Positions 24,817 to 28,854 of a DNA stretch of 64,000 nucleotides are shown piece by piece. How positions within the stretch are numbered: the first letter of the stretch is position 1; each line of letters begins with the position of its first letter. Source of the DNA: Alphaproteobacteria bacterium (lineage in GTDB: Bacteria > Pseudomonadota > Alphaproteobacteria > UBA828); NCBI GenBank assembly GCA_965214705.1, contig OZ243972.1, positions 768,001-832,000 on the forward strand, in the 5' to 3' direction. A program made the position numbers and the translations under genes. The notes under the pieces are model-generated. The model saw nothing but the letters and a program-made list of their open reading frames with translations, had not been told where the DNA came from and made no database searches.

Positions 24817-25028
24817 GCTCTCCCGGTCCTGCGTCCGGCGCGTGCTTTGGCCTTCCAGATTCCCCTTGGGCTCGGCCCTTGGCTCCACCGGCTCCGCCGG
24901 GGCAGGTGCCCCATTGTTCGCCGGCTTCATCGCTGTCGGGTCGGAGGAGGCGCCCCGCGAGGCTAGCCTCCGTCCGCCGCTCAAACGGCCCGTACGGTTT
25001 TCCCGTAAGCCGCTTTCACAAAGGTGTC

Positions 25029-26514
25029 TCAACGAAGGTTCAAGGACGGAACCAGTGAGATCAGGCGAACAAGCCCGTATTCGTCGATCAGCTTGCGCTC
25101 CGGCAACTGTTTCCAGCCAGCGTTGCGCCAGCGCTTGCGACGATGCGACCAGAGCCGCCGCACGATCCAGCCGTCAAGCTGGTGGAAGAGCCCGCGGACG
25201 TGGGCCTTGCAATAGTATTGGCCCCATCCCCGAATGATCGGGAAGGCTTATCCCCTTACATCCGGCTTCTCCATATGTGGGGTGCCGGATCGCTGGGCAC
25301 TTTACGGGCAACCCATTGAGACACGGAAGGAACTGCGACCGTGTCGGATACCGCCGCCGAGGTGATCGGTACAACATGTTGGGGAACCGGAGCCAGAGGG
25401 ATAAGCCTTTGATCGGGTTGATCTCGTCAATCAGCTCCTGCGTGCTGACAGGAGCCTTGCGCCGGGTACGCTGGCGAATCTGGTCCTTGAAGTGCCGGAT
25501 GGATTTCTCACGCGGAACCGCGTAGCGCGCTCCCCCGCGAACCCCGCTCTTGATCTTGGAGGACGACAGCCGGAGAGGCCGCTCGCCCTGCTTGATCTTG
25601 TAGCCGAGGAACTCAAACCCGTGCCTGACATGGACAATGCGGGTCTTCCCGGCGTTGAGGGACACACCCAGCTTTGCCAGAATCCGCCTGGCCGTCTCCA
25701 GTGCTGCGCGGGCTTCCCCGCGTGTGCGGCACGTGATCAGCCAATCATCGGCGTATCGCGTTAGTCGATAGCCGCGACGACGCATTTCCCAATCGAACGG
25801 GGTCAGCAAGATATTGCTGAGCAGCGGTGAAACGATGCCGCCCTGCGGAGTGCCCTGTTCGGTCGGCAGCCTCTTACCGTCGGCCACCACCCCGGCCGTG
25901 AGCATCTGCCTGAGCAGACCTAATACCCGGCCATCCGAGACTCGCTGGTTGACGAGTTCGAGGAGCTTTTCGTGGTCCACGGACCCGAAAAAGTCTTTCA
26001 AATCCGCATCGAGAACCCACTCGTTGCCCTCGTCCAGTTCCCTCCATATCTTGCGTAACGCTCCATGGGCAGACCTTCCTTGCCGGTACCCGTAGTTGGC
26101 ATCGTCGAACACCGGCTCGAAGATCGGTTCCAGCCGGTTCAGCAGCGCCTGCTGGCACACCCGGTCGTAGATTGTCGGGATGCCGAGCGGGCGGAACTTC
26201 CCCGGCTGGCCCGCCTTGGGGATCAGGCATTGGAGAACCGGCTGCGGGTGATACTCACCGTCCCGCAACTCCCGGTGCAGGCGATCGAGATTTGCATCCA
26301 GCGATGCCTCGAACGCCGCTAAATCCTCTCCGTCCACGCCACCGGCACCCCGGTTGCGCTTCACCTTTTCCCAGGCCACCTCAAGGTTCTTCCGCTTGTA
26401 CACCTTGTCCACCAGTGAGTGGACCTTCCTGTCACCCGCCGGGTTGATCCAGTCGATGAGTCTCCTCGGGCCATGATGTCCGGGTCTTTCGCTCAAGGAA
26501 CTTGTCCGCGTCAT
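25029..26514 (-). pseudogene. ltrA: Inner intron reverse transcriptase/maturase, interrupted by a MITE in domain X
   Basis: KVHSLVDKVY, GGVDG, PLGIPTIYDR, GTPQG, YADD. Removing the MITE and one TSD gives INPIIRGWGQYY...LNLR* (436 aa). Confidence 0.9.
25243..25409. mobile_element. 167-bp MITE with IS1595-like (ISSod11-type) ends
   Basis: 12-bp perfect TIR AAGGCTTATCCC; 8-bp TSD TGATCGGG (25235-25242 and 25410-25417); no ORF. Confidence 0.9.
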
Positions 26515-28854
26515 GGTCCTTACTCACTCATCGCTGTCTCTCGCCGACCACCTCTGCCAACCGCCTTCCCCGGCCCACACGGCCGCCGCTCGCGCGGTCA
26601 CCCGGCTTTCGCCGGGCTTCAGGTACTATTCGGTTGTCCGATTGCTCGCCGCGCATCCTTTCCCATTTCGCCTTTCGGCTTATAGGGTCCGTTATCCCGG
26701 TGCCACCCGGGAACGCGGCGAGCCCTCCTGGGGTCACGTCCAGATCTTCCGTACCGTGCCGCTCGCAAACACCTTGGTGCGACGGGTGGGTAAGAACGCC
26801 TTCGCCGCCATAGTGCCGGCTCGACCTTGCCCCGTCTTTGGCCGACCGATTCATCATGGGGTGGCCCCCTCGATTACGGCCCGGTACTTCTCCGCAAGCC
26901 CTTCAGATTCCACCTCGCGGTGGACACCCTGCCTTCCGGTTGTCTTTCGACAGTGGACCAACTTAGCTCCTCCCTTGGCTGTCTCCGCCGTTTCCGGCTT
27001 CGTGCCCGTTTAGAGTTTCGCTTATCGGCTCACTCCGGCCAGTGAGGAATTACCCCCACTTTTGGATATGGCGCCCCTTACCCGAGCGCCAGTGGGACTT
27101 GAACCCACCTGATCTGGGCGCTGCCCAGCACACACTATGGCCGAGTCTGATTTCTCCATGTCGTTCATCTTCGGTTACGGACTCCTCCTTTCCTCAGCGT
27201 TCCCGCCACGACTCAGCGGGATGACATGGAGACCTCCCAGGTCCCGGTGCAGTGCGTACGTACGTGCGTGGGTTCTCTGACACCGCGGGATTCAGACCCC
27301 CCTCGCCATATCGGTGGGCCAGATGCGACCTTCGGCCAACGAAAGAGCCTCGGCATCCCGGATGATGTTTCTTTCGGTGCTCAATAGCCCCGCCCACACG
27401 CGCCCCTGTCAACGCTTGACCCTCGCCCTCGCGAGCGACGGCCCATGACTCGGGGTGGAAGTGGTGGCTCACCTTCTCCTTCCTGTTGGACTTTCACCAA
27501 CTGCACTCGCACCAGTTCGCCTGGCGCACTCCGCTCTTCAACTCCTGCCGCAACCGCCACTGCCCCACCTGCCAGGGTCTCGCCGCCAACCTCTGGAGCG
27601 AGGAGCGCGCCGGGGACATCCTGCCGGTGCCCTACTTCCATGTGGTCTTCACCCTGCCCAAGGAGGTTGCCGCCATTGCCTTCTGCAACCGCAGGGTGGT
27701 GTTCGACATCCTCTTCCGGGCCGTCGCCGAGACCCTGCGCACCATCGCCGCCGATCCCCGCCACGGCGGCATGCGCATCGGCGGCACCGCGGTCCTCCAT
27801 ACCTGGGATCAGAAGCTCCGCTTCCACCCGCACCTGCACGTGGTCGTGCCCAACGCGGGCTTCGACGTAGACAGTGGCGAGTGGAAGACGGGGAGCACCA
27901 CCTTCCTCGCCCCCGTCAAGGTCCTCGGCAGCCTGTTCCGCCGCCTCTTCCTCGAGGAGCTCGCCCGCGCCCACGGCCGGGGGGACCTGGAGTTCCACGG
28001 CACCCTCGCCCACCTCGCCAATCCCGGCGAGTTCCACGCCACGCTTGCCGCCGCCCGGGCCAGGGACTGGGTGGTCTACGCCAAGCGGCCCTTCCGCGGG
28101 CCTGAGCAGGTCTTCCGGTACCTCTCGCACTACACGCACAGGATCGCCATCTCCGACAGCCGCATCGTCTCCTTCGACGGCGAGACGGTCTCCTTCCGCC
28201 ACCGAAAGCCCAAGGCGCCGGGGCAGAGAAAGCCGCGCTACGGCATCGCCACCGTGAGCGCCGACGAGTTCATCCGCCGCTTCCTGAGGCACGTCCTGCC
28301 GGACGGCATGCACCGCATTCGCTACTTCGGCATCCTCGCCAACGGCTGCCGCGCCAGCACGCTGGAGAGAGCACGCCAGGCTCTCGGCGCCCTCGGCTGC
28401 GCCGCCCCCGAGGGAAGCGTGGACGGCGCTCGGGCCGAGCCCGACGAAGAGCCCGAGATCGGCACCGCGCCCGTGGCCTGCCCCCACTGCGGCGGCGTCA
28501 TGCGCCTCGTCCGCGAAATCCGCCGCCGCCATGAGCCCCGCTCGACGCGCGGCCCGCCGGCGCTGCCGCCGACCCACAGGGGGAAACCGTGAGACGCCCG
28601 CTCGCTTCGGCCCCGCGCAACGGCGCCAAAGCGCCGACGCACGACCGAACCTGTCTCCGCTTGAGCCGGGCTGACAGCCCTCGGCTCACACCCCGCTCAG
28701 TCCTCGCAGCGTGCGCCCGCATGCCTGCCGAAAGACCGGCGCGAGCGTCGATTTTATGCGCAACTCTGCTGCCGGTGGATGCCGCCTGACGCTGACATCA
28801 GCGCACTTTCCACATAGCTCAACTTCGCCTCTCGTGGCCCGCGGCTTCGTTCAA

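Follow-up and report, generated by a model that had tools for sequence, protein, structure and literature searches.

A group II intron lineage that very probably homes into domain III of other introns of group II

Group II introns are the presumed ancestors of spliceosomal introns and of non-LTR (long terminal repeat) retroelements, and how they find safe places in a genome is a central question. [quoted passage not shown] As in the case described here, an intron sits in an intron, and the target is read through base pairs formed with intron RNA (PMC2882425). We analyzed a window of 64,000 nucleotides (contig OZ243972.1, positions 768,001 to 832,000) from an alphaproteobacterial genome (G000; 7.9 Mb, 3 contigs), in which an inner group II intron lies wholly within an outer one. 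The inner intron is very probably a mobile element without an endonuclease (En) domain, which takes as its homing site the internal loop conserved in domain III (D3) of other group II introns. What is unusual here is the target in the ribozyme core, the broad range of host introns, and the spread across phyla.

In the T. elongatus nests, as far as the available text goes, the insertion site lies in domain IV and falls between the host ORF's first two ATGs, the guests are ORF-less and mobilized in trans, and guest and host are close relatives within one genome (PMC2882425); here, in contrast, the site is the D3 loop of the ribozyme core, the guest has its own reverse transcriptase (RT), and the hosts belong to several structural families, with the lineage present in many phyla. 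The D3 internal-loop site and the encoded RT set the inner intron apart from the T. elongatus type. Homing into related intron ORFs in one archaeal genome is reportedly, to go by its title, the subject of a 2003 study by Dai & Zimmerly. Judged by that title, the nests of Methanosarcina acetivorans differ from ours in that their targets are intron ORFs rather than a ribozyme domain. They are alike in that the nest serves as a perpetual homing site (PMC4424553). In Trichodesmium erythraeum the inner intron of T.e.I7/I8 sits in domain I, and sequential splicing has been shown (Pfreundt & Hess 2015; PMC4649490); in the mat1f twintrons of Porphyridium the site is in domain IV, and one inner intron occurs in two different outer introns (PMC4476101). 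Both concern single or few loci, and the available parts of the two papers report no lineage-wide specialization on a ribozyme motif (PMC4649490, PMC4476101).

RmInt1, inserted in ISRm2011-2, resembles the inner intron in that it encodes an RT and maturase without DNA-binding and En domains, targets a mobile element, and reaches high copy numbers, but its target is an insertion sequence and not another intron (PMC1802570). Specialized monophyletic lineages tied to one genomic context across many hosts are likewise described, the context in our case being intron D3; the available sections of this 2025 account mention none that targets introns (PMC12584367). The commonest neighbors of group II introns are other group II introns (PMC7306698). 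Twintrons and other multi-intron sequences, 21 of 513 test sequences, were excluded by the pipeline of a bacterial intron database (PMC4028801), and another annotation pipeline is unable to find a twintron's outer intron (PMC8919778), so that a lineage of this kind could be systematically under-recorded. We found no description of a domain-III-homing intron lineage in the group II intron and twintron papers searched, PMC3245105 and PMC3552965 included; an earlier description is possible.

The inner intron has the features of a mobile group II intron: a GUGYG start, an AY end, domain V (D5), a bulged A in domain VI (D6), an RT/maturase ORF in domain IV (in the intact copy), and pairings of the exon-binding sites EBS1 and EBS3 with the intron-binding sites IBS1 and IBS3 in the exons. 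It is flanked by CCATAGT (27140-27134) on the 5' side and AGC (24934-24932) on the 3' side. Its boundaries are exact, since uninvaded copies of related host introns in the same genome show CCATAGT joined straight to AGC[GA]ATGAAG. An earlier reading made from the sequence alone (the sequence-only reading) had given positions for the intron, its flanks, a hairpin in domain I, and a motif in its own D3, all of which were reproduced; its full length is, however, inflated, the window copy measuring 2199 nt against 2024 nt in intact copies because a miniature inverted-repeat transposable element (MITE) of 167 nt sits inside the RT gene.

The same reading had placed the insertion in D3 of the outer intron, and two minimum free energy (MFE) folds and an Rfam consensus now agree with this. 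In a 671-nt ORF-less relative of the outer intron the fold comprises domains I to VI (D1–D6), and GUAGUA directly adjoins the 5' strand of the D3 basal stem on its 3' side; the two halves of the outer D3, once joined in silico, give a standard D3 fold with the stem CUCGGCC/GGCCGAG and the loop AUAGU followed by A, the insertion point lying between the two. The RF01998 consensus, GcCAUAGUAgc...GAAGGgC, consists of the basal stem, a 6-nt loop, the upper stem, a 4-nt loop, and the basal stem again. At one locus in another genome (L039), an uninterrupted host copy matches the whole of RF01998 (56 bits), through CAAAGUA, and an interrupted copy matches it through CAUAGU, the match breaking at the first base of the inner intron. 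Folds and consensus thus concur in modeling the inner intron within D3. A stem-complementarity test for D3 was dropped in favor of Rfam and RT evidence, as mismatched flank pairs gave similar stem lengths.

The hairpin in domain I carries a 7-nt loop sequence, ACUAUGG, that the sequence-only reading had taken for EBS1. Two lines of comparative evidence bear this out: the hairpin aligns to the variable-loop hairpin of the Rfam D1 model RF02001 (a weak match in the window copy, 21.4 bits), and it covaries with the target across 34 distinct relatives. Of all IBS1–EBS1 cells, 94.5% are paired, and six of the seven pairs show compensatory changes (35 sequences, 34 distinct); none of 500 shuffles was as good as the observed pairing, and sliding the partner by 1–3 columns left 25–57% paired. 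Besides ACUAUGG with CCAUAGU, the combinations of EBS1 and target include AUUAUGA with GUAAU, AGUAUGG with CCGUAUU, ACUUUGG with CCAAAGU, ACCAUGG with CCAUGGU, ACCAUGC with GCAUGGU (a non-intron site), and CCACCGU with ACGGUGG, the last at L058 in what folds as the domain V 3' strand of another intron. A candidate EBS3, U365, would pair with the A that follows the insertion site: this column holds U, matching exon A, in nearly all relatives, whereas in L058 it is A opposite U and in L054 C opposite G, and it is on these two compensatory cases, the only ones, that the assignment is based. As read from the sequence, EBS1 and EBS3 together spell YCRUAGU followed by A, which is the conserved D3 motif. 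The 7-nt EBS1 pairs with YC[A/G]UAGU, and the motif (C)AUAGUA that both elements spell is near-invariant and closes the basal stem of D3 in many intron families.

Two observations on individual loci belong here. At L039 and L050, on the same contig, a guest with ACUAUGG lies in a CCAUAGU host and a guest with ACUUUGG in a CCAAAGU host, and an uninvaded host copy with CCAAAGUA is present at L039:6019-6101; from their sequences, guest and host in these pairs look as if they had evolved in step. The intron at L058:3452-5402, the sister of L054, sits after ACGGUGG, one base short of the end of the domain V 3' strand in a fold of the rejoined flanks, and, judged from this fold, would add, within this clade, another type of target in an intron core. 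An EBS2 candidate loop (GUAAUCGA ... GAUGAAUCGG) was rejected, being conserved in relatives while the exon positions vary, even for one identical intron.

The source genome contains 21 5' ends and 20 3' ends of the inner intron at about 100% identity. Ten copies are intact (2024 nt), one lacks 16 nt, the MITE is present in the window copy, eight are interrupted by other insertions, and one is a stump of 292 nt. All 21 5' junctions end in [AG]TAGT (13 CATAGT, 6 CGTAGT, 1 GATAGT, and 1 TATAGT), and the next base is A at 20 of 20 3' junctions. In 17 of the 21 copies the insertion is at the same position of the D3 internal loop, in at least eight host-intron families: five copies are in O1 (the family of the window's outer intron), two in O2, three in O3, a further one has an O3-type 3' side, the stump is in an O5-like host, and one copy each is found in O4, O5, family B, a RF02003-type intron, and a host with a strong D5 2 kb downstream. 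Between families, the 300-nt host flanks are 70–78% identical or unalignable; the inner copies differ by 0–2 substitutions in 19 of 20 cases and form two haplotypes (T570G), each distributed across several host families. Near-identical guests in diverged hosts mark the insertions as recent and independent. The genome also has unoccupied sites that are identical to occupied ones, two in O2, two in O3, and three in family B at 100%, with further empty family B sites at 99% (one) and 91% (two).

A scan of one genome per species (loci are labeled L0xx) recovered RT relatives of 50–93% identity at 63 loci, in records labeled as at least ten phyla. The sequence-only reading had proposed that such homologues be gathered and their boundaries defined: using nhmmer, at least one junction was placed in 52 loci, the loci with no locatable end being L063, L067, L074, L080, L088-L093, and L098. 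At 35 of these 52, a host intron in the same orientation is independently supported, by a second RT gene on the same strand or D5/D6 less than 700 nt downstream, by an Rfam D1 upstream, or by RF01998 across the junction; the second RT starts 72–567 nt downstream, D1 ends 89–278 nt upstream, and D5/D6 lies 135–210 nt downstream. The other 17 loci comprise seven with D3-like but short flanks, one without flank, one unclear, and about eight outside D3. Of the 5' junctions elsewhere, 30/36 end in RTRRT and 32/36 have a J2/3-like motif upstream. Two copies with 91% identity to the window copy occur in a genome of the same genus (G004), each in D3 of a different host; the junctions of L037 and L042 are those of the G004 copies and do not count as independent.

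The hosts span RF02005, RF02003, RF02001 with RF01998, RF01999, and at least two families without Rfam D1 match; that the target is common to many introns, as had been suggested from the window alone, thus holds for four Rfam D1 families and at least two unmatched ones, and the inner intron is always in the orientation of its host. A variable EBS1 and mostly non-intron targets had been named as grounds for abandoning the idea, but most homologues keep ACUAUGG and sit in D3, and those with an altered EBS1 have a correspondingly altered target. Independent, recent insertion has taken place into many diverged hosts, in the source genome and in many phyla. Among cultured strains, both flanks are of D3 type in Paraburkholderia hospita mHSR1 and in Microvirga sp. 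VF16. For Bradyrhizobium sp. 62B the 3' junction alone could be placed, with a D3-type flank and two ltrA genes annotated back to back, and the same junctions recur in cultured Singulisphaera sp. Ch08. The existence of cultured carriers makes bench testing possible.

A maximum likelihood tree was calculated for 30 lineage RTs of at least 380 aa and the window type, with three host-intron RTs serving as outgroups and without the shorter or frameshifted ORFs; its root is not reliable, and many of its forks are open. In it, the lineage makes up a clade of 31 rows on a long branch. As D3-targeting members are found in every subclade, D3 targeting is most simply ancestral to the sampled clade, and the clearly retargeted L054 and L058 form one nested pair (support 100/100). 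It should be noted that the RT proteins of L044 and L045 are identical, whereas their bins are labeled Gemmatimonadales and Gammaproteobacteria, with isolate names that have a common prefix; this could be due to a recent transfer or to a binning error.

The inner intron itself has a D3 with a related motif, GAAUAGU followed by A (26631-26625, intron nt 503-509), with A at −6 and G at −7 where the target has C and Y. Across the lineage, the sequence of the own D3 is CYG-A-AUAGUA, in which an additional A precedes the loop and position −7 is G instead of Y. In the window intron the own D3 offers five pairs to EBS1 compared with seven for the target. Among 33 relatives (three rows were skipped for gaps and L037 because its D1 is interrupted), none has seven pairs between own D3 and own EBS1 and two have six, whereas the actual targets have seven pairs in 22 and at least six in 31; in relatives with C at the own −6 position, the rest of the motif or EBS1 differs. 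The own D3 is invaded in none of the 21 source-genome copies. The mismatch noted in the sequence-only reading is thus confirmed. The self-avoidance it was taken to give, through the G-A in place of Y-C at −7/−6 that would weaken self-recognition, is plausible from these comparisons as a correlation; L056 counts against it, being inserted at a site with five pairs, the same number as its own D3 offers, so that five pairs can suffice.

Unoccupied copies of the 8-mer address number 366 in the source genome, compared with 334 expected from base composition, and about 15 of them are in D3; 15 occupied copies are in D3 and three elsewhere. Occupancy is thus 15/30 in D3 and 3/354 elsewhere (odds ratio 117, p = 3e-16), or 8/9 and 3/354 if families are counted for D3, and 8/9 and 3/38 if a tenth of the other sites tolerate insertion (p = 4e-6); the effect size is uncertain, because copies are not independent and selection removes harmful insertions. 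These figures bear on the alternative that only the short YCRUAGU followed by A is recognized and that the concentration in D3 arises later, by selection against other sites and co-copying with selfish elements. The four copies outside D3 do have the same heptamer, two of them at paralogous sites by a NikA-like ORF (26.7 bits, cut-off 27), one by an AAA_22 ATPase gene, and one within a hydantoinase B paralogue, so that mobile-element genes are near some of them (AAA_22, NikA-like), and O1 is occupied in 5/5 copies, two of which have both flanks in common, so that some copies arose by duplication of the whole nest. The excess in D3 is nevertheless hard to reconcile with this alternative even in the tolerant case, and the non-intron sites (C1:2824167, C3:371266, C2:671405, and C3:2019164) also have GUC-purine motifs 10–18 nt upstream of the junction, which resemble the J2/3 linker of the hosts and may hint at a missing recognition determinant; we regard this alternative as unlikely. 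An insertion at the RNA level, by reverse splicing into the D3 loop of host RNA and fixation through host retrohoming or cDNA recombination, would explain a D3 preference far above the 8-mer prediction as well as the empty ORF-less O6 hosts (0/5), which are possibly untranscribed or immobile. The four non-intron sites and the occupied hosts with broken RT genes would then need another route, the route established for group II introns in bacteria is DNA retrohoming (PMC12584367), and we give this possibility only a slight chance. It is very unlikely that the nest is old, a single ancestral insertion being inherited while the composite twintron diversified and spread as a unit: composite mobility is discussed for the T. 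elongatus twintrons (PMC2882425), and the window copy and G000:C3:1610004 have identical outer flanks on both sides, which shows that the whole nest was duplicated at least once, but nearly identical inner copies sit in hosts of 70–78% identity or of different Rfam D1 families, empty and occupied copies of one host coexist, and the inner RT tree does not mirror the host families. That the nesting is an assembly or binning artifact of repeat-rich metagenomes has next to no chance of being correct: many loci do come from metagenome-assembled genomes, with the identical L044/L045 RT genes labeled as different phyla, but the same junctions occur 21 times in a genome of three contigs and recur in the complete genomes or plasmids of the four cultured carriers, and DNA contigs of sequencing run X1 cover the whole stretch, one of them crossing the inner 5' junction by no more than 6 letters into the host. 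At the inner 3' junction another X1 contig has only 1 letter on the intron side, and this junction is thus not confirmed by that run.

Several observations weigh against homing into D3 as we propose it. About eight loci in other genomes are not in D3 (L048, L054, L058, L072, L082, L087, L094, and L096), nor are 4 of the 21 copies in the source genome, in which, conversely, none of the five perfect D3 sites in the ORF-less family O6 is occupied. The relatives in many cases derive from metagenome bins, whose taxonomic labels may be unreliable. EBS2 was not identified in a search of D1 for pairing with exon positions −8 to −14, and the EBS1 hairpin of the window is absent from the unconstrained MFE fold (in which D1, D2, and D3 form separate domains), so that the position of EBS1 agrees with the RF02001 alignment but not with this fold and comparative evidence is relied on instead. 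The 8-mer address alone does not account for the D3 bias; an additional determinant is likely, and could lie in the J2/3 context, in protein contacts, or in an RNA-level route. Finally, no splicing or mobility was observed, the RNA contigs being unable to tell spliced twintrons from uninvaded hosts and the ten identical intact copies of 2024 nt at different sites giving indirect evidence. Sequencing runs number 23, of which six are recorded as RNA and hold 7–13% of the sampled words; contigs of three RNA runs and one DNA run were compared at 90% likeness, and uncovered parts in the RNA runs carry no meaning. In run X20, two contigs connect 24899/24901 with 27134 through 30–35 other letters, which read as the D3 of a related host lacking the inner intron; this fits a spliced twintron as well as an uninvaded host in another organism and speaks neither for nor against splicing.

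D3 homing by an En-less intron would proceed by reverse splicing of the intron ribonucleoprotein into DNA, with cDNA synthesis primed at replication forks, as En-less introns use replication-fork primers (PMC4424553). Splicing of the inner intron would restore D3 of the host and let the host intron fold. The host would serve as a safe harbor, multi-copy, mobile, and constrained by ribozyme function. The window copy itself is crippled, with the MITE in its own RT gene and a frameshift in that of its host, and ten identical intact copies at other sites of the genome could provide the protein in trans. The phenomenon is general beyond this window, and its mechanism is supported by comparative evidence. 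As a target, D3 has the advantages of being present wherever group II introns are, multi-copy, horizontally mobile, and hard to mutate away, which would explain the presence of the lineage in at least ten phyla. The nest is also a natural system in which the activity of one ribozyme would depend on prior excision of another, and the matched variants of D3 motif and EBS1 suggest host–parasite coevolution at the RNA level. More tentatively, and with somewhat less than an even chance in our estimate, the pan-bacterial clade may be a dedicated hyperparasite that reads the J2/3–D3 context beyond the 8 nt (by protein, RNA contact, or a route through host RNA), is engaged in an arms race that shows in the matched changes of D3 motif and EBS1, acts, by splitting the catalytic core of the host, as a brake or conditional switch on host splicing and mobility, and has a sister branch directed to domain V.

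With regard to its classification, the intact protein encoded by the inner intron (intron-encoded protein, IEP; 436 aa, locus L009:2120-3430) matches TIGR04416 with 383.8 bits (cut-off 300) and GIIM (PF08388) with 74.3 bits, has no En domain, and stops after the maturase region. The window copy reaches 21.4 bits (E = 0.43) with RF02001 (group-II-D1D4-3), below the gathering threshold of 32, and is thus a distant relative of that D1 type rather than a clear member; relatives in L064 and L076 pass with 33.0 and 34.2 bits. Subgroup IIC introns are characterized by a small ribozyme, an EBS1 of 3–4 nt, and insertion downstream of a terminator or DNA hairpin. The inner intron, with an EBS1 of 7 nt, D1–D3 of about 580 nt (MFE fold), and D3 loops rather than terminators as targets, falls outside this subgroup, its sole IIC-like feature being that EBS2 is not detectable. 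The best plasmid matches of the IEP carry only the generic annotation ltrA and no class label (A-F, ML, CL, g1-g5).

Table 1. Features of the nested introns and their surroundings (positions in the window).
Feature	Position	Strand	Details
Inner group II intron	24935-27133	-	5' GUGUG, 3' CCGAC; boundaries exact from natural empty sites
Domain V of inner intron	24984-25014	-	AGC triad, 2-nt CG bulge; sequence and MFE fold of last 125 nt
Domain VI of inner intron	24941 (bulged branch A)	-	7 nt from 3' end; sequence and MFE fold of last 125 nt
RT/maturase gene of inner intron	25029-26514	-	disrupted by MITE; translation runs into foreign segment and stop
MITE with target-site duplications	25235-25417	.	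element 167 nt (25243-25409); 8-bp duplications 25410-25417 and 25235-25242
Own domain III of inner intron	26558-26636	-	MFE fold and alignment of 36 relatives
Candidate EBS3, U365	26769	-	41 nt downstream of EBS1; pairs with +1 A of 3' exon
EBS1 hairpin, domain I	26804-26820	-	GCCG-GCACTATGG-CGGC, intron nt 314-330
EBS1 heptamer ACUAUGG	26814-26808	-	intron nt 320-326; complementary to 5' exon CCAUAGU
Outer (host) group II intron, family O1	about 23409-27529	-	about 1.9 kb without inner intron
Outer domain III, 5' half	27134-27145	-	basal stem strand CUCGGCC, then internal-loop AUAGU; last 7 nt (27140-27134) = IBS1
Outer domain III, 3' half	24871-24934	-	A (IBS3, 24934), upper stem-loops, purine-rich internal-loop strand, basal strand GGCCGAG (24877-24871)
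RT/maturase gene of outer intron	23486-24816	-	frameshifted near 24711-24735; putative GTG start at 24816
IS91-family (Y2) transposase gene, downstream part	27530-28592	+	interrupted by outer intron, antisense

The outer intron has the same orientation as the inner one (table 1), as had been noted before, and its parts flank the inner intron with D1–D3 (RF02005) on one side and D3–D6 and the IEP on the other. Its RF02005 match (27494-27271) scores 172.1 bits; its 5' end (GTGCGCC) is the point at which five O1 copies converge, and its 3' end is taken from the Rfam alignment of D5/D6 alone (RF00029, 23482-23409; 36.1 bits, under the gathering score of 40). The frameshift in its RT gene is an extra 5-nt GCTGC repeat unit, which leaves two ORFs in different frames (24914-24435 and 24697-23486); the 5 nt are missing from contigs of X1 (DNA) and of X16 (an RNA library). 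A 403-aa part of the outer IEP matches TIGR04416 with 359.6 bits. Alignment with the ORF-less relative suggests the GTG listed in table 1 as its real start; an ATG 5 nt past the insertion site lies within outer domain III and is probably not the one used. In the source genome, two ORF-less relatives of the outer intron lie head to tail at G000:C1:1859847-1861186, with a unit of 671 nt and a GAGCG start as opposed to GUGCG (five members in this family).

The outer intron interrupts the zinc-binding domain of the IS91-family transposase gene. The ORF at 27486-28592 (+) matches PF04986 with 184.8 bits and PF14319 with 57.8 bits (profile positions 50–90 only), and a phage-integrase-family gene precedes the IS91-type gene, the stretches concerned being 22183-23223 (+) and 27486-28592 (+). 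With the MITE in the inner intron, the inner intron in the outer one, and the latter in the IS91-type element, the nest is four levels deep. The MITE has terminal inverted repeats and lies in the maturase (X) region of the inner RT gene. It is missing from the other intron copies, and positions 1717-1724 of the query are duplicated at the window copy; at least 13 further copies of 96–99% identity are present in the genome, and it is skipped by a DNA contig of X1. Mobile DNA is very abundant in the genome, and the elements that interrupt other inner copies (e.g., C3:54434-56108 and C1:3493378-3496041) include one of 1.67 kb with 25 genome copies and an ORF with a UPF0236 match of 32.7 bits, and one of 2.66 kb with 68 genome copies.

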